From positions 128,387 through 192,386 of the forward strand of contig JBFIJM010000001.1 in NCBI GenBank assembly GCA_041600715.1: a stretch of 64,000 bases of DNA, written 5' to 3'. Source of the stretch: Candidatus Saccharimonadales bacterium. Lineage in GTDB: Bacteria; Patescibacteriota; Saccharimonadia; Saccharimonadales; 2-12-FULL-41-12. Positions 10,230 through 49,456 of this stretch are shown piece by piece. Below the pieces are notes generated by a model. That model was not told the DNA's origin and made no database searches. It saw only the letters and a program-made list of their open reading frames with translations. The position numbers and the translations under genes are program-made. Numbering within the stretch: position 1 is the stretch's first letter; each line of letters starts with the position of its first letter.

Positions 10230-11005
10230 CTAGCCAAAAGCGAAGACACCAGCGCTTCAAATGGTTTGGTAGGCTGTTGCATTCGCCATACCGACGCAAA
10301 AGAAGCAATCGTATTATCGTTTAGATGTTTGGTCGAGCTGGCACATACATTGCCGTTATGGCCGACAAATGCGTCATCGCGTGACTTCTGATATATAACA
10401 CTTCCCTTTGCGCCTTTTGTAATCTCGTTTAGTATTCCGGTAATTTGCAAACGATTAGAACCAGATGTCAGCGGAGTAGTGAGCCCGAATTCAGTTACAA
10501 TCTTTTGGAGGACTGGTGTTTGCAGTATCAGTGTAATGTCGCGCTGTAGAAGTTGTGTACGGGGCATGCCAATACTACTCAAGGCGTTGGTTGTTATGGT
10601 GACGGGTCGAGGGCATTTGAGAAGGTATCCGTCCAGGATGGTAGTTGTCTCGCTGTTCTTGCCAAGATCTCCTGCCAGCATGACATGGTCAGCCCAAGTG
10701 GACGCTTCTAAAAAGCTCGCAAGGGACGCCCGGCTAAAACTACCGCTAGGATTGCTAGGAGCATACTCGATGTTTGGTAGCATCTTGGTGTGTTTCTCTG
10801 TACTGCTGGGCATGATAACTCTAATCGTGCCAGCACCAGCTTGGCTTGCAGACATATATGCAGTGGCCACATTAGAAAATTCCTGAGCTTGTCCGCCAAT
10901 TATCAACAGCTTGCCAGCTCCTCGTTTAGTTACTGGACGGGACCACTCTATTTCAGGGAATAATAATTCACTACCTTGTTCAAATAACCACTCAGGATGT
11001 TTCAT
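10226..11005 (-). CDS. YjeF C-terminal / carbohydrate-kinase-like protein (NAD(P)HX dehydratase-like, degenerate C-terminus)
   Basis: KRGAGKLLIIGGQAQEFSNVATAYMSASQAGAGTIRVIMP and ADHVMLAGDLGKNSETT match the YjeF_C pattern. The C-terminal GxGD motif was not found. Start placed at MKHPEW. Confidence 0.45.
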   Translation of the reverse strand: MKHPEWLFEQGSELLFPEIEWSRPVTKRGAGKLLIIGGQAQEFSNVATAYMSASQAGAGTIRVIMPSSTEKHTKMLPNIEYAPSNPSGSFSRASLASFLEASTWADHVMLAGDLGKNSETTTILDGYLLKCPRPVTITTNALSSIGMPRTQLLQRDITLILQTPVLQKIVTEFGLTTPLTSGSNRLQITGILNEITKGAKGSVIYQKSRDDAFVGHNGNVCASSTKHLNDNTIASFASVWRMQQPTKPFEALVSSLLAS

Positions 11006-11615
11006 GAATAACTTCTGACTTTTCATCGTTAACAATATACATATCACTATCGTTAAGCTCCAGCGTTTTTAATGGGTCGTATAAGCTACGAGCATGGTCG
11101 ATACTGTCTTTCATCCAAGGATTGTCAGCATGAGGCAGAATGTACTTGTCTAGCATGCCTAGGCCTTCCCATATTACTTCCTCTGCGTATAGAGGGTTGT
11201 CCTCCAGCTCTAATCCTTTGAGTGATTCATTCAAGACGCAGGCACCGGCACTTTCCCCTATGTATACGCCTCCATTAGATAGAAATTGAGGTAATATTTG
11301 ATCAAAGCCACTATGCCTCATTTCATATCTCAAACAAAACGTATTACCTCCCGTAACCCAAAGGGCGTTATAGCAACTCATCTTTTGTTTAAGCACCCCG
11401 ATATCTCTAAAATTCTTTAGATCCACTACTTCAGAAGTTAGCCCTAGATTGGCCATATAATCTTTTGATTCGTTTATCTTTATGGATCGTGCACGGTCTG
11501 CGTAGTAATCGCTAGCGTTGGGTATTATGCCTAGCCTTACTTCTTTAGGATCTCCTAGAAGCTTTAATAGTTGCTCTGGCTGAGGGATCCTGTAAGAGGT
11601 TAAGAATAACTTCAT
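10992..11615 (-). CDS. Peptidase E-like (S51) / type 1 glutamine amidotransferase-like protein
   Basis: MKLFLTS..., GGNTFCL and the nucleophile elbow YIGESAGACV are typical of the S51 dipeptidase E family. Confidence 0.65.
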   Translation of the reverse strand: MKLFLTSYRIPQPEQLLKLLGDPKEVRLGIIPNASDYYADRARSIKINESKDYMANLGLTSEVVDLKNFRDIGVLKQKMSCYNALWVTGGNTFCLRYEMRHSGFDQILPQFLSNGGVYIGESAGACVLNESLKGLELEDNPLYAEEVIWEGLGMLDKYILPHADNPWMKDSIDHARSLYDPLKTLELNDSDMYIVNDEKSEVIHETS

Positions 11616-11630
11616 ACTAAACAGTATAGA

Positions 11631-12914
11631 CTAACCCACGTCTGAGTAGCGACGAGCTTTTACAGCTCCAGCCAGGATACCAAGTAATTGCTCAGTTTCT
11701 TTTATATCGATACACCCATCAGTTATACTCTTGCCATACTCAAGCGATGATTTTTGTCCATCTGCCGGCGGGCTTTGTTTACCAGAACGTAGATTACTCT
11801 CTAACATCACTCCTTTAATTGCTGTGTCTCCTAGTATAATTTGCTCTGCAACATTCTTTACGACCCAAAATTGTTTAGTATAATTTTTGTCGCTGTTGTC
11901 ATGTGATGCGTCGACAACCACTGCCTCTAAGAGCTTCCTCGAGGTAACCGCATTTCTCTCTCTAATCTGGTCAAGAGTCTTTTGGATGTACTCCTCGCTG
12001 TAGTTGGGCGAATCTCTGCTACCCCGGAGTATTACATGAGCCGTCTCGTTGCCGGTTGTTTCTATCTCGGCATTTACTCCACTCATTTCGTTACCAAGTA
12101 ACACGTGAGGACGCGAAGCAGAATCCACGGCATCAACAGCAGATGAGATATTACCGTCAGGGGTATGTTTAATACCGACGACACTAGAGGTGCCAGAAGC
12201 GTATTCGCGAGCTTTTTGGTCCAGAGCATTCCGTGCACCTATAGCGTCGTATGTAACTAATCCATTGACGTACTGAGGTGTTAATGCGTTAAGTCTCTCC
12301 ATGGCCAGAGGCACGCCTTTATGAGTTATGGCATTAGCTAACATTCTCGTGATCATGACACCTTTGTTAAAATCGTAGACAACATTATTTGGGTTTAAGA
12401 ATTCAGTTAGGTCTGGATCGTATGTTAACCCTTTCCATCCAGCGACAGAACGGGGTTTCTCGGTATAGAATCTCATGATTATTTCTAGATCATCACCGTG
12501 TAATTTTCGTTGATCGACAATGAAATCAGCGTATTCTAAAGCGGACTTAGGGTCATGTATAGAGCAAGGACCAACAATAACAACCAGGCGATCTTCTTCG
12601 CCACGGAGAATAGTTTCTGTTTTGGTTCGACTCATCCTGGTAGTATTTGCAGACTGGGATGATATAGGCAGAACCTCTGTTAGTAGTTCCGGAGATATGG
12701 CTGTTCCCGGAAGTTTGGTTCTTTGATCCATTAAATCCGATGTTTCTACTGGATTTTCTGATATATCAAAACGTTCCCTAATACTTGGATACATTCCTTG
12801 CCTATGTTGATGCGCTATGGCTTGAGCCTCTTGCTCTACTTCAATTAGAGCTGGCTTCATGATTTCCGCTTTTAGCTCAATATTCTCTGACGTACTATAC
12901 GTTTCTGGTGACAC
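11631..12914 (-). CDS. aroG: 3-deoxy-7-phosphoheptulonate (DAHP) synthase, class I (AroG/F/H-type) with ~55-aa N-terminal extension
   Basis: RLVVIVGPCSIHDPKSALEYA, KPRSVAGWKGL and the SHDNS region match class I DAHP synthases. GTG start at 12914. Confidence 0.85.
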   Translation of the reverse strand: MSPETYSTSENIELKAEIMKPALIEVEQEAQAIAHQHRQGMYPSIRERFDISENPVETSDLMDQRTKLPGTAISPELLTEVLPISSQSANTTRMSRTKTETILRGEEDRLVVIVGPCSIHDPKSALEYADFIVDQRKLHGDDLEIIMRFYTEKPRSVAGWKGLTYDPDLTEFLNPNNVVYDFNKGVMITRMLANAITHKGVPLAMERLNALTPQYVNGLVTYDAIGARNALDQKAREYASGTSSVVGIKHTPDGNISSAVDAVDSASRPHVLLGNEMSGVNAEIETTGNETAHVILRGSRDSPNYSEEYIQKTLDQIRERNAVTSRKLLEAVVVDASHDNSDKNYTKQFWVVKNVAEQIILGDTAIKGVMLESNLRSGKQSPPADGQKSSLEYGKSITDGCIDIKETEQLLGILAGAVKARRYSDVG

Positions 12915-12932
12915 TGCTTTTCTCTTTCTCTG

Positions 12933-12963
12933 TTAATTAAAAAACCGCCTGTCTCGGCGGTTT
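12933..12963 (-). terminator. Intrinsic terminator / attenuator hairpin upstream of aroG
   Basis: Minus strand reads AAACCGCC-GAGACA-GGCGGTTT followed by TTTTTTAATT. It lies between a leader ORF and the DAHP synthase start. Confidence 0.6.
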
Positions 12964-12985
12964 ATTGTCTCGTTATTTTAAGTGC

Positions 12986-13063
12986 TTATTTCTTGATACG
13001 CACAGGAGCGACCGCCATTTGGGGCTTGGTAAACCAAAATAAATTAAAATAACGTTTGCTCAT
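12986..13063 (-). promoter_or_regulatory. Candidate leader peptide ORF (25 aa, MSKRYFNLFWFTKPQMAVAPVRIKK)
   Basis: ATG 13063 lies 7 nt downstream of an extended -10 (TGGTATAGT, 13079-13071). Five of codons 5-11 are aromatic. The ORF contains GGCGGT, which is complementary to the 5' arm of the downstream terminator. Confidence 0.4.
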
Positions 13064-13101
13064 AGTATTGACTATACCACAACTAATTTGCCCAGAAAAG
13101 T

Positions 13102-13269
13102 CTAAAGAGTATTCTCGTTGACCCCACGCATAAATGCGATGGCTTTACGCGTTGCTTCGGCTGTGCGTTCTAGTGTTGCTTGTTCTGTTTCGTCTAGCGT
13201 TTTGGCTTCCTGATCAGCAAAAACCATCTCGTCCAAGCTTTGAGGTGGCTCTAATTCTTGTAGGGTCAT
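13102..13269 (-). CDS. Small acidic hypothetical protein (55 aa)
   Basis: MTLQELEPPQSLDEMVFADQEAKTLDETEQATLERTAEATRKAIAFMRGVNENTL, preceded by AAAGGAGAACAAAT. It is below the ORF-track size cut-off. Confidence 0.35.
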   Translation of the reverse strand: MTLQELEPPQSLDEMVFADQEAKTLDETEQATLERTAEATRKAIAFMRGVNENTL

Positions 13270-13287
13270 ATTTGTTCTCCTTTAAGT

Positions 13288-13321
13288 ACTAAAAACTCCC
13301 GCTTTTTAATGGCGGGAGTTT
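13288..13321 (-). terminator. Intrinsic terminator downstream of the NUDIX gene
   Basis: AACTCCCGC / GCGGGAGTT stem followed by TTTTTAG on the minus strand. Confidence 0.5.
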
Positions 13322-13424
13322 GATATTTTTATAAAATGTACAAACAGCCCGCTATTGCTTGAGCGAGATAATCACCTTGTTTGATACAGTAATGATTTTG
13401 TACATAAGCGTTATTATGCCCCTC

Positions 13425-13895
13425 TCAAGTTGGGATGTCAAATGTGCTAATTGAGTGATCTAACATTTCATCTTCATCATTTAACTCGAATCTTGCACGG
13501 AAGCCACGACCGGCGATTAGTACCGGTAGCCAGTACTTATCATCGGGCCACATTTGGTTATACGGGATATCTTTGACGTTGTACCAAGCTGGACTCATTT
13601 CATCGCTTTCTGCGGGCTTGCCACCCCACTTATACGACTTAAATACATGTGCGTGCATACTCCCAAGCTTGCCGTCAACGGGTAGTAAAAAGTCTATCTC
13701 ACCAACTTTAATTAATTTTGATGGCGTAATATTAATTTCTTCTTGGCACTCTCGAATCGTTGCTTGCTCAGGCGTTTCATTGGGTTCAATTTTTCCTCCT
13801 ACGCCGTTCCATTTCCCTTCACCAAAACCTCGCTTCTTCATTGCTAGTAAGATTTGATTTTCTTTAAGTAGAAATAGAAGCGTTACTTCCTTCAT
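13425..13895 (-). CDS. NUDIX hydrolase, MTH1/MutT-like 8-oxo-dGTP diphosphatase
   Basis: NUDIX box GVGGKIEPNETPEQATIRECQEEINI. The upstream KRGFGEGKWNGVGG resembles MTH1-type enzymes. Confidence 0.75.
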   Translation of the reverse strand: MKEVTLLFLLKENQILLAMKKRGFGEGKWNGVGGKIEPNETPEQATIRECQEEINITPSKLIKVGEIDFLLPVDGKLGSMHAHVFKSYKWGGKPAESDEMSPAWYNVKDIPYNQMWPDDKYWLPVLIAGRGFRARFELNDEDEMLDHSISTFDIPT

Positions 13896-14683
13896 GAAAG
13901 CTCAATACTTATCGGACAATGGTCAGAACCCATAACGTCTGCATGAATTTTAGCTGTTTTTACTCTTGATTTTAGTTCTTCCGAGACTAGGAAATAATCA
14001 ATTCGCCACCCGACATTACGAGCACGTGCATTAGCCCAGTGTGTCCACCAAGTGTAGTGGCCGTTTCCTTTAGTAAACATTCTAAATGTGTCTATAAAAC
14101 CCTTGCTAAGCCAGTTATCAAATCCGGTGCGCTCCTCATCCGAAAAGCCTTTTTTGCCGATGTTTTGCTTAGGGTTCGCTAGATCATCTTCGGTATGTGC
14201 CACATTCATATCGCCACAGTAAATCACAGGCTTTTTGAGTTGTAGCTCTGCACAATATGAGGAGACGGCAATATCCCACTCTTGTCGTAGTTTTATGCGT
14301 GCCAGCTTGTCCTTTGCGTTAGGTGTGTAGCAAGTAACAATATAAAAGTCGTTAAACTCAGCGGTAATTACGCGACCCTCAGTGTTGGCGTCGCCGTAAC
14401 CGTCGGCGATCAGTCCACTTTCTTTCACGAATTTTTCTGGTATGTCGTTTATAACAGCAACCGGCTTAATCTTCGTAAAAATTGCTGTGCCACTGTAGCC
14501 TTTTTTATCCGCAGAGTTCCAATATTCCTCGTATCCTGTTAAATCAACTTCGGCTTGACCCTGCGAGGCTTTGGTTTCTTGCAGGCACAGTATATCTGGC
14601 CGGTGTTTTTCGATAAACGGTGCAAACAGGCCTTTATTGTGCACAGCCCGTATCCCATTCACATTCCAACAGTATATCTTCAT
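13892..14683 (-). CDS. xth: Exodeoxyribonuclease III
   Basis: MKIYCWNVNGIRA, LCLQETK and SDHCPISIEL are the ExoIII/APE1 family signatures. There is a 4-nt overlap with the NUDIX gene. Confidence 0.9.
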   Translation of the reverse strand: MKIYCWNVNGIRAVHNKGLFAPFIEKHRPDILCLQETKASQGQAEVDLTGYEEYWNSADKKGYSGTAIFTKIKPVAVINDIPEKFVKESGLIADGYGDANTEGRVITAEFNDFYIVTCYTPNAKDKLARIKLRQEWDIAVSSYCAELQLKKPVIYCGDMNVAHTEDDLANPKQNIGKKGFSDEERTGFDNWLSKGFIDTFRMFTKGNGHYTWWTHWANARARNVGWRIDYFLVSEELKSRVKTAKIHADVMGSDHCPISIELS

Positions 14684-14724
14684 GAGGTCATTGTATCAGA
14701 ATCTGATATACTACACTTCTAGAA

Positions 14725-15432
14725 ATGGCATATAAACGAGTACTTTTGAAGCTGTCGGGCGAGCAACTCGGCGGAAAGTATGAAAACGGTATTGATCCGG
14801 AGTTAGCTTCTTGGTTTGCAAAAGAAATCAAGAAAGTCGCAGATTCTGGCACAGAAGTTTTGATAATGGTTGGTGGCGGTAACTTTGTACGAGGTGCCCA
14901 GATTGCTGGTCACGGCATACGTCGCGTTACAGGTGACCATATGGGTATGTTGGCAACTATGATTAACGCTTTGGCGCTCACCGATATCTTTGAGGCTCAA
15001 GGAGTAAAGACCAGGTGCCTTAGTAACATCTTTGCCGAGCAAGTAGCTGAGCCGTTTGTGCATCGATTGGCTAATAAGCACCTTGAAAAGGGTCGAGTAG
15101 TTATCGCTGCTGGCGGAACTGGCCGTCCTTATTTAACAACAGATACCGCTGCAGTTGTCCTGGCTTTAGAGTTAGACTGTGAGATTGTACTTAAGGCCAC
15201 AAAAGTAGATGGAGTTTACGATAAAGATCCAGCACATCACGAGGATGCTATTAGGTACCAAGAACTGACTCTGCAACAAGCAGTCGAGAACGATAATATA
15301 AAAGTTATGGATAAGGCAGCGATCGGACTAGCAATGGAGCAAGGCATGAAAGTGATTGTATTCAATCCAATGGCAGAAAATGCCATCCTTGCTGCTGTCT
15401 CCGGCAACGACATCGGCACCAAAATCAGCTAA
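14725..15432 (+). CDS. pyrH: UMP kinase
   Basis: YKRVLLKLSGEQLGG, MVGGGNFVRG and the DGVYDKDP motifs. Confidence 0.93.
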   Translation: MAYKRVLLKLSGEQLGGKYENGIDPELASWFAKEIKKVADSGTEVLIMVGGGNFVRGAQIAGHGIRRVTGDHMGMLATMINALALTDIFEAQGVKTRCLSNIFAEQVAEPFVHRLANKHLEKGRVVIAAGGTGRPYLTTDTAAVVLALELDCEIVLKATKVDGVYDKDPAHHEDAIRYQELTLQQAVENDNIKVMDKAAIGLAMEQGMKVIVFNPMAENAILAAVSGNDIGTKIS

Positions 15433-38865: not shown

Positions 38866-40416
38866 ATGAGCAAAGCAACGAAACAGCAAATTACAAACTA
38901 TATTAGTAATTATATTGGCGAGAATGGGATGTTCCCGACACTAAATGAAGTTAAAGATGCAGTTGGTCTTAAATCTGTATCAACCGTACATCAACACATA
39001 AAAGACTTAGTAGACAACGGTATATTAGCCGTTGATGAAAATGGTGGATATAACCTAGCTTCGAAAGATGCAGAAATTACCAAGGTTCCTGTTTTAGGTT
39101 ATATTGCTGCAGGTTTTCCTATCGAGGCTATAGAAGAAGTTGCCACGCACATCGACGTTAGCAATTTACCCAAGGGCGATTTCTACGCGCTTCAAGTTAA
39201 AGGCAACAGTATGATTGATGACGGTATATTTGACGGAGATATTGTAGTTATTAAGAAACAGACTTCTGCCCAAAATGGACAAACCGTTGTGGCTGTAATT
39301 GACGACAATCAAGCCACGCTCAAAAAACTGTACAAAGAAGACGGGAAATTTAGACTACAGCCAGCAAATCAATCGATGCTTCCCCTAGTTAGGGAAGAGG
39401 TCGAAGTTCGTGGTATCGTATGGTCAATACACCGCAACTTAAACAATCCCATTAATGATTCTAATGTATTGCCCACAAAAGACTGGAAAACAGTTGATCT
39501 ATTCGCAGGTGTTGGGGGTATAAGGATTGGTTTTGAGAATGCTGGTTTTTCTACTGTGTTCGCGAATGATTTTGAGGCTAGGTGTGCCGATACATATAAT
39601 GCTAACTTTAAAACAGCAAAATTAGTGGTTGAGGATATTACAAAAATAGCTACTAAAGATATACCGGATTGTGATTTTGTGTTGGGGGGTTTTCCTTGTC
39701 AGGCGTTCTCCATCGCCGGTTACCGACACGGATTTAACGATATAAAAGGCCGTGGCAACCTATTTTTTGACATTGCAAGGATAATCAAAGACAAACAACC
39801 CACGGGGTTTTTGCTCGAGAATGTTAAAAATCTCAAAACACATGACGGTGGCAAGACTTTTGCAATTATTGAGCAAACTCTTAATGAGCTTGGCTATATT
39901 ATTAAATCCAAAGTTTTGAATTCAATGGATTATGGTAATGTGCCACAAAACCGGGAACGAATTTACATAGTTGGATTTAAAGATAAAGCTAAAATTGATA
40001 GCTTTGAATTTCCGGAACCTATAGAACTAACCAATACAATAAAAAATATTCTAGAGAAAAATGTTGATGAGAAGTATTACTATAATGGCAAGCCTTTGTA
40101 TGAGAAACTTAAGAATGATATTAACGAAGAAAACCAAGTGTACCAATGGCGCCGTAAGTATGTCCGCCAAAATAAAAAAGGTGTCTCACCTACTCTAACA
40201 GCGAATATGGGCATGGGTGGACACAACGTACCCATAATCTTCGATGGTAAAGGTATCAGGAAGTTAACACCAAGAGAATGTTTTCGTCTGCAAGGATTTC
40301 CAGATAGCTACAAGCTTCCTAAAATAGCTGACTCAGCACTTTATAAGCAAGCTGGAAACTCTGTAACAGTCACTGTTCTTGAGCAAATCGCTAGACAGAT
40401 AATAAAAGTACTATAA
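38866..40416 (+). CDS. LexA-like S24 autopeptidase repressor fused to a DNA (cytosine-5) methyltransferase
   Basis: One continuous 516-aa frame.
- Residues 1-~195 are LexA-like: a wHTH, scissile AAG in VLGYIAAGFPIEA, Ser in VKGNSM, and Lys in ATLKKL.
- Residues ~207-516 are Dcm-type: DLFAGVGG (I), GFPCQAFS (IV), ENVKNL (VI), QNRERIY (VIII) and GNSVTV (X). Confidence 0.85.
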   Translation: MSKATKQQITNYISNYIGENGMFPTLNEVKDAVGLKSVSTVHQHIKDLVDNGILAVDENGGYNLASKDAEITKVPVLGYIAAGFPIEAIEEVATHIDVSNLPKGDFYALQVKGNSMIDDGIFDGDIVVIKKQTSAQNGQTVVAVIDDNQATLKKLYKEDGKFRLQPANQSMLPLVREEVEVRGIVWSIHRNLNNPINDSNVLPTKDWKTVDLFAGVGGIRIGFENAGFSTVFANDFEARCADTYNANFKTAKLVVEDITKIATKDIPDCDFVLGGFPCQAFSIAGYRHGFNDIKGRGNLFFDIARIIKDKQPTGFLLENVKNLKTHDGGKTFAIIEQTLNELGYIIKSKVLNSMDYGNVPQNRERIYIVGFKDKAKIDSFEFPEPIELTNTIKNILEKNVDEKYYYNGKPLYEKLKNDINEENQVYQWRRKYVRQNKKGVSPTLTANMGMGGHNVPIIFDGKGIRKLTPRECFRLQGFPDSYKLPKIADSALYKQAGNSVTVTVLEQIARQIIKVL

Positions 40417-47786: not shown

Positions 47787-49423
47787 ATGTACGACAAAAA
47801 TTTACAGAACTTACGCTATCGCTTGTATGCCCGTAAGTCTACGGACACAGAAGATAGGCAGGTTCAATCACTTGAAGACCAAGTGAAGTATATGAAAGAT
47901 AGAGCCGAGGAACTTGGTCTGAAGATTATCGGTAAGCCAATTCGTGAGTCTAAGTCAGCCAAGCGCCCAAATAATCGTCCCCTATTTTCTGAAATGCTGA
48001 AAGAAATAGAGGAAGACAAAATTGATGGAATCATCTGCTGGAAGGTCGATCGACTATCCAGGAATCCTACTGATTCCGGGCATATACAACAGCTATTACA
48101 AGACGATAAAATAAAGCACATTCTAGCGATGGATAGAAGCTATTTCCCAGAGGATAATTCTATTGTATTTAGTGTTGAAGCGAGTCAGGCTAACGAGTAT
48201 GTTCGTAAGCTTGCCGTTGATACTCGACGAGGTATGCAATCAAAAGCCGAAAAAGGAGACAAGCCAGGTGTTCCGCCTGTAGGTTACTTAAACGATCGTA
48301 TAGATAAGAAAGTTATTGCTGATCCTGATCGCTTTGCCTCTATGCGAATACTTTGGGACAAGATGCTTACGGGTACATACTCAAGGCACAACTTGTACAT
48401 GTGGCTGATAAAGAACTGCACATCACTACACCAGTTAGAGGCAAAACAGGTGGAAAGCCGATTTCCTATTCAACTCTTTGCGTTCTATTCAAGAATCGAT
48501 TTTATACGGGTCAACTGCCATTTAAGGGTGAGGTGTACCCTGGAAATCACCCTGCTATGATCACAGAGGAAGAATTTGAGCGTGTGCAGCAAATCATTGA
48601 TCCGTCACATACGACACGTCCTAAAGATAAGACCTATAACTTCCAGCTACGCAACTTATTCCTATGTGGCGAATGTGGTTTTGCGATTACTGTCGAACAA
48701 AAGCAGAAGCTCATAAAGTCTACTGGCGAAACCAAGACTTATATCTACTATCACTGCACAGGCAAAAATAAGAACATTAAATGTACTCAACCAAAAACAC
48801 ACGTTACTGAAGACGAGCTACTTAAACAAATTAAAGAAAAGCTTTCTAGATTTACTATTGACCCCGATTTCTACAAGCTGGCGATTGAACGGCTGGCTCA
48901 AGAAGAAGATGAGGTCGTAGAAAAGAACAACACCAAGACGATAGCTCATGAAAGAGCTATTAAGAAAGCTGAAACATCTATAACAAACCTGCGTCGTATG
49001 AGGTACGCAGGTGAAGCAGATGATGACTCTTGGTACTTTGCTGAAATAAAGACGCTAGAAGACGAGCTAGAACGCTTACAGGAGGCTCGTAATAAAGATG
49101 AGTATAAGGCTCGCAATTGGCGTGCCGTGGCTGATGAGACATTCACTTTTGCTCGTTACGCTAAGGAAGACTTTGACAGTGATGATTTAGAGAAGAAACG
49201 TTCTGTTGTCATGAAGCTAGGGGAAAAGCTGACGATTCTGGATAGAACCATTCAATTTACTCCTAATAAATACTTCATTCCGCTTGAAAAAATGAACGAA
49301 CAGCAGAAACTTGCCCCAGAAATGGTTAGAACCGACTTCCAACAGAGGGAAATCGGTCCTAAAAACGACCTTGTTCTATCTTGGCTCGGGAGGCCGGACT
49401 CGAACCGGCAACCTCGAAGTTAA
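47787..49423 (+). pseudogene. Large serine recombinase, split by a -1 frameshift near 48383; 3' end reads into tRNA-Asn
   Basis: - Frame 1 carries the resolvase domain (YARKSTDTEDRQVQSLEDQ, WKVDRLSRN).
- Frame 2 carries the recombinase and zinc-ribbon domains (LFKNRFYTGQL, CGECGF...YYHCTG) and a coiled coil.
- Homology is continuous across ...LTGTYS/KAQLVHVADKELHITTP.
- The last 14 codons translate the tRNA. Confidence 0.8.
49381..49399. repeat. Right att-type direct repeat (inside tRNA-Asn 3' end)
   Basis: Identical to 41681-41699. Confidence 0.8.
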
Positions 49424-49456
49424 CAGCTTCTTGCTCCACCATTGAGCTACTCCCGA
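49382..49456 (-). tRNA. tRNA-Asn (anticodon GTT), CCA encoded
   Basis: Reverse complement is TCGGGAG-TA-GCTC-AATGGTG-GAGC-A-AGAAG-CTGTTAA-CTTCG-AGGTT-GCCGG-TTCGAGT-CCGGC-CTCCCGA-G-CCA. Confidence 0.9.

Follow-up and report, generated by a model that had tools for sequence, protein, structure and literature searches.

What controls the gene for DAHP (3-deoxy-D-arabinoheptulosonate 7-phosphate) synthase in this stretch of Candidatus Saccharimonadales DNA (64 kb of contig JBFIJM010000001.1, in the following called the window), where the gene is preceded by a small open reading frame (ORF) with a run of aromatic codons and by a hairpin followed by a T run? An earlier note on this DNA had read these parts as a ribosome-mediated attenuator. 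Our analysis supports this interpretation: the leader ORF, its GGCGGU antiterminator strand and the terminator are conserved and covary in relatives, and the element is very probably a ribosome-mediated leader-peptide transcription attenuator, which would make expression of the DAHP synthase operon dependent on the charging of the tRNAs for Tyr, Trp and Phe.

All parts of the element are on the minus strand, and inspection of the sequence, the ORF list, profile searches and terminator scans placed the extended -10 box, the 25-codon ORF, the terminator and the GTG start of the DAHP synthase gene where the earlier note had put them. The gene itself (12914-11631, GTG at 12914) encodes a class I-alpha DAHP synthase of 427 aa, which matches PF00793 (1e-58) and scores 340.8 bits with TIGR00034 aroFGH, for which the cut-off is 173.2 bits. 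The extended -10 box (TGGTATAGT, 13079-13071) is 7 nt ahead of the ATG (13063) of the leader ORF (MSKRYFNLFWFTKPQMAVAPVRIKK, 25 codons and a stop, 13063-12986, with the stop at 12988-12986), which leaves no room for a Shine-Dalgarno sequence, and the leader mRNA is therefore probably leaderless or nearly so. The leader contains one Tyr, three Phe and one Trp codon, and codons 5-11 (Tyr Phe Asn Leu Phe Trp Phe, 13051-13031) form the proposed stall site. The pheL/trpL-type design suggested previously is supported, and was amended with a region 1 to give the classical four regions, although the pairing of regions 1 and 2 is clear in the wider family and weak in the window. The candidate for region 1 (ACCAAGCC, 13030-13023) can pair with GGCGGU (ACC/GGU and GCC/GGC, -4.8 kcal/mol). 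Region 2, the antiterminator strand (UGGCGGU, 13017-13011), is identical to the 3' arm of the terminator and starts 13 nt past the last Phe codon of the aromatic run; its GGCGGT occupies leader codons 16-18 (13016-13011), as was noted before. Region 3 is the 5' arm of the terminator (AAACCGCC(G), 12963-12955), of which the ACCGCCG portion (12961-12955) is the partner of region 2 in the read-through state, and region 4 is the 3' arm GGCGG with six U residues (12949-12939).

The complete terminator hairpin (AAACCGCC-GAGACA-GGCGGTTT, 12963-12942, T run ending at 12939) begins 22 nt past the leader stop codon, has a stem of eight pairs of which five are G-C in the terminator scan, and is followed by the GTG of the DAHP synthase gene 24 nt beyond the U run. 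The alternative helix with ACCGCC described earlier does exist, but consists of 7 bp (UGGCGGU:ACCGCCG) including one G-U pair, rather than 6 bp. Two further structures were predicted in the window leader. A hairpin across the leader stop codon (GUGC-G-UAU...AUA-A-GCAC, 13003-12982) is part of the minimum free energy (MFE) fold and is enclosed by the 2:3 helix, while a perfect 11-bp helix in the fold and energy calculations joins codons 4-7 (CGUUAUUUUAA, 13054-13044) to a strand just upstream of the terminator (UUAAAAUAACG, 12981-12971), and probably acts as a local anti-antiterminator. The 11-bp helix was rejected as a conserved element, being absent from L001 and all other relatives.

Relatives of the locus (numbered L) were collected by their DAHP synthase protein, and hence without bias as to the leader. 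The cassette is present in all ten related DAHP synthase loci which have upstream DNA. The closest relative is L001 (75% identity of the DAHP synthase, leader peptide MSKRYFGFFWFSIPQMAVAPVRIKK), followed by L002 (55%, MTNRKFYYGWILKPHAAVSLAQT), L086-89 (49%, MSSAYYSFFWFTSRKSGGMHLQSKK), L003 from a Ca. Saccharibacteria genome (45%, MSTQSSKQYWFTGITDGGSFCA), and L090 (MSSNQQNCAYWFTPYYPSGYLAVSA), L091 (MSRLSANSNQYWFTDSSRGGYFAVFA), L093 (MSAQRHNAFWFTGFHEAVSLGVCIN) and L092 (MSRSVNQFYFFWFTNPQDVAVTS), all four at about 50%, with the leader of L092 located one small gene further upstream. The possibility that L092 is an exception without a leader was rejected, as the covariance model described below finds two copies there, while in L083 the upstream DNA is partial and the terminator is still present.

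Alignment of the regions upstream of these genes, as proposed in the earlier note, gave the anticipated picture of a retained aromatic core and covarying stems. The core [Tyr/Phe]-Trp-Phe is retained in 9/10 protein-found relatives, with synonymous TAT/TAC and TTT/TTC changes, every cassette measures 119-129 nt from its ATG to the last U of the run, and GGCGGU begins 14-17 nt past the Trp-Phe codons. The GGCGGU motif is read in one frame as ATG GCG GTC or GCG GCG GTT (M-A-V, A-A-V) and in a second frame as AGC GGC GGT, GAT GGC GGT or CGT GGC GGT (S-G-G, D-G-G, R-G-G), and its retention in two reading frames points to a constraint on the RNA and not on the peptide. A TGn-extended -10 box is found exactly 7 nt from the ATG in six of nine relatives, and a TTGACA -35 box in four. 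The gene upstream of the cassette varies, being a 55-aa gene, an exo/endo-phosphatase gene (L002), a divergent gene (L086-89) or rpsI (L003, L090-93), and the hairpin is thus not the terminator of one particular upstream gene.

We also searched a metagenome collection with a DNA pattern made from the conserved cores, in which TGGTTTAC, RGCGGT and RCCGCC were fixed and only the flanking columns were free to vary. This gave 80 loci with about 63 true leaders, 58 of them unique, and covariation was tested in an alignment of 66 leaders (A4) against 500 shuffles. The 2:3 antiterminator (columns 24-31 with 83-90) is 94.4% paired, with 12 double-change cells versus 2.7 in the shuffles (0/500), and its pairing drops to 32-65% when the partner is slid. 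Similar values were obtained for the 1:2 hairpin (columns 10-17 with 24-31; 94.2% paired, 16 double-change cells versus 2.5, 0/500 shuffles), and the 3:4 terminator (columns 81-88 with 101-108) is 96.0% paired with three double-change cells versus 0.9 (12/500 shuffles). The triplet of columns 17, 24 and 90 reads C-G-C in at least 28 sequences, G-C-G in eight and A-U-A in one, so that column 24 covaries with both of its partners, as predicted for mutually exclusive helices. A covariance model based on 62 leaders (R2), from which the window, L001, L002, L086/88 and L092 had been left out, identifies the window element at 12933-13039 (minus strand) with 54.5 bits (E 9e-10), as against an E of 0.5 for the second-best hit of the window; only one copy of the leader element is present in the 64 kb. 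The same model gives 49.5 bits for L001, 44.3 for L086, 39.1 and 38.0 for the two copies in L092, and 24.6 for L002.

With regard to chance, the aromatic ORF is unremarkable by itself, as at least five aromatic codons in seven are found in 14/1716 small ORFs of the window (G+C content 42%). The leader RNA has an MFE of -34.0 kcal/mol (z = -2.67), which beats 200/200 dinucleotide shuffles, and the terminator scan predicts six sites in 1.1 kb versus 0.8 expected. The GGCGGU element is the best partner of the 5' arm of the terminator anywhere in the window leader (p = 0.008 versus shuffles), and likewise provides the best duplex with this arm in 8/8 members of the clade (p 0.002-0.018 each). It is the comparison with relatives, however, that decides the question.

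In the mechanism which we propose, transcription would begin at the leader ATG or 1-2 nt earlier, and the 25-codon leader would be translated by a ribosome as the RNA polymerase proceeds. When aromatic aminoacyl-tRNA is scarce, the ribosome would stall at codons 5-11, with a footprint that hides both region 1 and the 11-bp helix's 5' strand and stops just before region 2. The free region 2 would take region 3 (ACCGCCG) on its emergence, the terminator would be blocked, and the polymerase would enter the DAHP synthase gene, with read-through probably extending to the S51 peptidase and Nnr-like genes which follow it. With charged tRNAs, the ribosome would pass region 2 and continue to the stop codon, and region 2 would be occupied, would re-pair with region 1, or would lie enclosed within the 11-bp helix; the 3:4 terminator would then form, and transcription would end about 25 nt ahead of the gene. 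The predicted energies in the window are -13.3 kcal/mol for the 3:4 terminator, -7.8 for the 2:3 antiterminator alone and -12.8 for the antiterminator together with the enclosed stop-codon hairpin (which contributes -4.9), compared to -3.5 and -4.8 for the 1:2 candidates and -5.7 for the 11-bp helix alone. The stop-codon hairpin is predicted in L001 too, and a GUGUU...AACAC hairpin of a similar kind seems to be present in family members, as judged by eye without a formal count.

The competitiveness of the alternative pairing, whose absence the earlier note had named as one possible refutation, depends on the length of the RNA that is folded. At full length and equilibrium the terminator wins with a probability of approximately 1, whereas in the window RNA before region 4 the antiterminator reaches a probability of 0.89-0.98 when the footprint of a ribosome is placed on any of the aromatic codons, compared to 0.04 without a ribosome. 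Such a split outcome is as expected for this class of attenuators.

Several observations weigh against the proposed attenuator, or against parts of it. The -35 box of the window leader promoter is weak (3/6), and the start site is placed from the consensus only. Coupling of transcription to translation is not known from Patescibacteria. The 1:2 pairing in the window has non-standard pairs compared to the family consensus, and its energy of -3.5 to -4.8 kcal/mol is weak. The leader stop codon is 22 nt beyond region 2, which is thus left uncovered by a terminating ribosome; the earlier idea that an unstalled ribosome covers the antiterminator is therefore only partly right, and re-pairing of 1:2, or else the 11-bp helix, is probably needed as well. 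The invariance of TGGTTTAC, RGCGGT and RCCGCC in the 58 leaders is by construction, because the search pattern fixed them, and the shuffle controls overstate significance, because the sequences are related. Profile searches of the 64-kb window found no further aromatic-pathway gene. Finally, the value of 0.04 for the window RNA without a ribosome hinges on the 11-bp helix, which is specific to this genome, and on a folding model that excludes pseudoknots, and when the 66 leaders were folded before region 4, the antiterminator was predicted both with and without a ribosome (medians 0.98-0.99). Stalled and unstalled states of the 66 leaders are not told apart by folding at equilibrium with a ribosome footprint, a contrast being seen in the window alone, and this approach was dropped as evidence for either side. 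In the classical trp attenuator the 1:2 and 2:3 helices are of similar stability and the switch is kinetic, and since equilibrium folding gives the antiterminator in the family regardless of the ribosome, the switch must be kinetic here too; folding neither proves nor refutes the mechanism.

Other explanations for the same parts were considered. If the hairpin were simply the terminator of the 55-aa gene upstream (13269-13102), the aromatic ORF would be there by chance, as a reading frame of AT-rich DNA, and the DAHP synthase would be expressed from its own promoter or by leak-through. That gene is indeed directly upstream on the same strand and conserved in L001, and aromatic-rich small ORFs are frequent in the window, but the cassette accompanies DAHP synthase or trpS and not the upstream gene, which is divergent, a phosphatase gene or rpsI elsewhere. 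Together with a conserved promoter between the upstream gene and the leader ORF, the conservation of ORF start, aromatic core and length, and the covariation of helices 1:2 and 2:3, this makes such an arrangement barely credible. We are equally disinclined to see the small ORF as a functional hydrophobic micro-protein, next to a terminator which merely insulates the following gene. While conservation, an own promoter and an aromatic hydrophobic core would suit such a protein, the peptide varies freely between the window clade and the rest outside the Tyr/Phe-Trp-Phe-Thr core, its length varies as well, the ORF is always immediately ahead of aromatic-related genes, and the features at the RNA level account better for the conservation.

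In two further readings the locus does respond to a signal. In one of these, the terminator and antiterminator are read by a sensor other than the ribosome (a T-box-like contact with tRNA, a small-molecule riboswitch or a protein of the TRAP kind), and the ORF is irrelevant. Alternative terminator and antiterminator structures are common to T-box, riboswitch and protein-read mechanisms, and aromatic and aminoacyl-tRNA synthetase genes of Firmicutes are usually T-box controlled (PMC1262725). However, neither the T-box covariance model nor any riboswitch family matched positions 11000-15000 of the window or the relatives at E values up to 10, repeated triplets of the kind bound by TRAP are absent from the leader sequence, and the element is only about 125 nt long and mostly ORF, with a conserved ATG, stop codon and frame to the aromatic codons, in which changes are synonymous or aromatic-to-aromatic; we consider a non-ribosomal sensor very unlikely. 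It is also unlikely, if somewhat less so, that the leader senses aromatic tRNA charging with an output other than 2:3 versus 3:4, such as Rho-dependent termination on RNA that is not translated, altered mRNA stability or nascent-peptide arrest, with the GGCGGU match being incidental or secondary. The failure of equilibrium folding to tell stalled from unstalled states leaves space for this, as do the 7 bp of region 2 in the window versus a terminator of -13.3 kcal/mol, and the well conserved C-terminal peptide GGLFRV in the large family. Against it, region 2 covaries with region 3 at positions outside the search pattern, GGCGGU is conserved across frames, the canonical hairpin and U run are 96% paired in 66 members, and the window peptide is unlike that of the family past the aromatic run, with the RNA elements retained. 

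The metagenome loci place the window element in a wider Saccharibacteria family with the consensus peptide M-x(6-9)-N-Q-Y-W-F-T-D-T-x-R-G-G-L-F-x-V-F-A, followed by the same terminator. The leader directly follows rplM-rpsI in 35/47 metagenome loci with enough upstream DNA, and likewise in L003 and L090-93. The first gene after the leader is a DAHP synthase in 21 loci (various class I subtypes with 307-436 aa, or class II proteins of about 400 aa), trpS in 19 loci (directly or past a small unknown ORF), an Asp/Glu racemase gene in five and a chorismate mutase gene in one, and trpS is found downstream of the leader in nearly all family loci with enough sequence. The slot between leader and trpS in L094-L173 contains class II (about 400 aa) or class I DAHP synthases of 307-313, 351, 361 and 410-436 aa, divergent examples being those of L105 (4775-5713), L139 (5544-6731), L145 (1758-2810) and L159 (2030-3337), and in other loci it contains chorismate mutase, Asp/Glu racemase or small unknown proteins. 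This looks like repeated gene replacement at one regulated slot. The occurrence of the same leader before non-homologous DAHP synthases, chorismate mutase and trpS links it to aromatic function and not to one gene lineage, and the non-homologous DAHP synthases in a single slot argue for such a functional link over hitch-hiking. On these sequence grounds, the leader would mark an aromatic-starvation regulon. Tandem leaders are seen in L092 (2555-2648 and 4389-4493), L145 (2849-2952) and L141 (550-652); in L092, three Trp codons are present in the second leader (MNSNKIQLSNYWQAHEFMWRLAFYWQ), behind which come a gene for an unknown protein of 304 aa, a luciferase-like gene and trpS.

The window does not share the family setting of rplM-rpsI before and trpS after the leader. 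Its cassette is located between the 55-aa gene and the DAHP synthase gene, no trpS was found in the 64-kb window, and compared to the consensus its leader has more aromatic codons, a different peptide tail, a weaker 1:2 pairing and the extra 11-bp helix. As judged from gene order, the clade of the window, L001, L002 and L086-89 has a putatively relocated leader-DAHP synthase cassette without trpS. Taken at its broadest, the proposal is of a lineage-wide leaderless Tyr-Trp-Phe attenuator with control over trpS, over DAHP synthases that can replace one another and come from two or more unrelated classes, and at times over chorismate mutase or peptidases, with the window as a relocated variant with extra Phe codons and without trpS. 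For this wider claim we see the case for and against as evenly balanced.

How does this element compare with known leaders? The pheL-pheA leader of Enterobacteria (Rfam RF01859, Phe_leader) resembles it in several respects: UUU/UUC codons follow one another in a short ORF, region 2 repeats the 3' arm of the terminator, the terminator is intrinsic, and a U-rich series of codons pairs with an A-rich stretch before the terminator. The Rfam alignment puts GGCGGU of the window at the position of GGGAGGC of pheA. It differs from the window leader, in which the codons are a mixture for three amino acids, the mRNA is probably leaderless, and the target is DAHP synthase and not chorismate mutase/prephenate dehydratase. 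The RF01859 model gives 32.4 bits for the window and 30.4 for L001, which does not reach the gathering score of 55, and has no match in L002, L003, L086, L090, L091 and L093. With a sub-threshold score and no match in most relatives, membership in RF01859 was rejected: the element works in the manner of pheL without belonging to the Phe_leader family. The thr and ilv leaders of E. coli have codons for several amino acids, and shortage of any one of these relieves termination. The combination of several amino acids in one leader is found here as well, but many repeated codons are present in thr and ilv, whereas the family consensus has one each of Tyr, Trp and Phe, adjacent to each other.

A closer parallel in terms of target is aroR-aroF of Corynebacterium glutamicum (Neshat et al. 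2014, as summarised in PMC11802643 and PMC4046766), where a leader peptide with Phe-Tyr-Phe precedes a DAHP synthase operon, and where ribosome stalling under Phe limitation raises read-through; aroR is reported not to respond to Tyr. The two systems share an aromatic leader peptide, a DAHP synthase target and the regulatory logic, and we liken them by logic and target alone; they belong to different phyla, and the window leader also has Trp and contains five aromatic codons. Leaderless leader peptides have been described for Streptomyces, including trpL2 before trpS (PMC8079986, PMC1262725). There too the 5' untranslated region is missing and one or few regulatory codons suffice, and the trpS target is shared with most of the Saccharibacteria relatives, although not with the window and its DAHP synthase. 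The Streptomyces trpL2 has one Trp codon and no clear U run, unlike the Saccharibacteria leaders with their hairpin, U run and Tyr-Trp-Phe triplet.

In a survey across phyla, at least six aromatic codons in eight were found upstream on the coding strand in 15/78 DAHP synthase loci among the matches listed, compared to 0/78 on the opposite strand, 3/75 further upstream and 0/76 downstream. Aromatic leaders with terminators precede class I DAHP synthase genes in Burkholderiales (including Bordetella), Xanthomonas, Bradyrhizobium, Desulfobacter, Chloroflexota, Nocardia and Amycolatopsis; the loci are L008, L009, L017, L021, L024, L032, L033, L038, L048, L051, L055, L067, L071, L075, L076 and L078-L080, and the distance to the DAHP synthase match is about 100-250 nt. 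The earlier note had considered DAHP synthase an unusual target for attenuation, a view which fails because aroR-aroF is known and aromatic leaders are seen in these other phyla. Architecture and sequence are similar (UUUUGGUU ... GGCGG ... AAACCGCC-loop-GGCGGUUUUUU), and the Saccharibacteria model matches L078 with 43.2 bits, L038 with 34.2 and L080 with 30.3. The proteobacterial region 2 tracks the terminator stem (CUGGCGG/CCGCCAG, CCGGCGG/CCGCCGG, AGCGGUU/AACCGCU and CUGCCUG/CAGGCAG), and the Amycolatopsis peptide MQRYFWFTKP... resembles the RYF..FWFTKP of the window. The differences are that the aromatic runs of the other phyla are longer (6-7 of 8 codons) and that the distance from run to region 2 is shorter (6-12 nt). 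Going by the sequences, the likeness between the Saccharibacteria leaders and those of other phyla may reflect either common descent or convergence. A published description of aromatic leaders before DAHP synthase in the other phyla was not found in the literature searched, and no Rfam family covers the Saccharibacteria leaders which were scanned, the loci from other phyla being outside that scan. The leaders across phyla would justify a curated RNA family.

The DAHP synthase of the window has an N-terminal extension of about 70 aa and the N-terminus MSPET, which is common to its relatives. No exact copy of the protein was on record. One relative has 75% identity, two have about 55% and many are near 50%, with those named at this level coming from Patescibacteria, Candidatus Saccharibacteria, Saccharimonadales and the actinobacterium Blastococcus. 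The gene is followed on the minus strand, after a gap of 16 nt, by an S51 peptidase gene (11615-10992), and this overlaps a gene for an Nnr-like protein of 273 aa with a carbohydrate-kinase fold (11047-10226), both assigned by profiles. The order of the three genes is retained in relatives, and the latter two are probably co-transcribed with the DAHP synthase gene. Homologues of the Nnr-like protein carry only Saccharimonadales, Patescibacteria or Parcubacteria names. The gene after the DAHP synthase gene encodes a peptidase or hydrolase of varying family, which is S51 in the window (10992-11615) and L084, M20 in L090 (4287-5339), and an alpha/beta hydrolase in L083 (1364-2284) and L086-89 (4253-5179 in L086). 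Such varied peptidases would be in keeping with a response that scavenges amino acids and is regulated together with the synthase.

Most documented cases of leader-peptide attenuation are from Proteobacteria, Actinobacteria and a small number of other groups. Saccharibacteria live as ultra-small episymbionts, and descriptions of them generally state that they cannot synthesize amino acids. The searchable literature yielded no report of leader peptides in the Candidate Phyla Radiation (CPR), and nothing relevant on a DAHP synthase or shikimate pathway of Saccharibacteria turned up in the literature searched; the Saccharibacteria leader family appears to be undescribed. If the proposed mechanism is correct, coupling of ribosome and polymerase would operate in CPR, and Saccharibacteria would sense aromatic amino-acid starvation directly by monitoring the charging of aromatic tRNAs. 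They would also, despite their reduced genomes, have retained a starvation-induced entry to the shikimate pathway, or use DAHP for some new purpose. If these cells cannot make aromatic amino acids, it is a puzzle that genomes of about 0.8 Mb retain a DAHP synthase, and one that was repeatedly swapped between classes at one regulated position. The covariance models R1 and R2 provide a ready annotation marker for the leader regulon.

A second leader-like cassette was noticed just upstream (13293-13441, minus strand), with the promoter TTGACA-17-CATAAT, a 7-nt spacing and a 17-codon ORF rich in Ile and Val (MYKIITVSNKVIISLKQ). Its structured region has an MFE of -33.1 kcal/mol (z = -3.65), the terminator (AAACUCCCGC...GCGGGAGUUUUU) is followed by the conserved 55-aa gene (13269-13102), and an AGCGGGC past the stop codon of the small ORF repeats the 3' arm of that terminator. 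This cassette is kept in L001 (MYKFIVANKVIISLKS) and may be another attenuator. Other genes of the window include those for a sortase and a PEGA protein, and a 516-aa ORF on the plus strand (38866-40416) in which a LexA repressor (residues 5-192, TIGR00498, 1.9e-44) is fused to a DNA cytosine-5 methyltransferase (residues 210-512, TIGR00675, 1.7e-103), an unusual fusion. Finally, a serine recombinase at 47787-49456 seems to be split over two overlapping ORFs, with the resolvase domain at 47787-48560 and the recombinase and zinc-ribbon domains at 48353-49423, and the end of the second ORF overlaps a tRNA-Asn gene on the opposite strand (49382-49456); this could be the frameshifted integrase of an element inserted at the tRNA gene.

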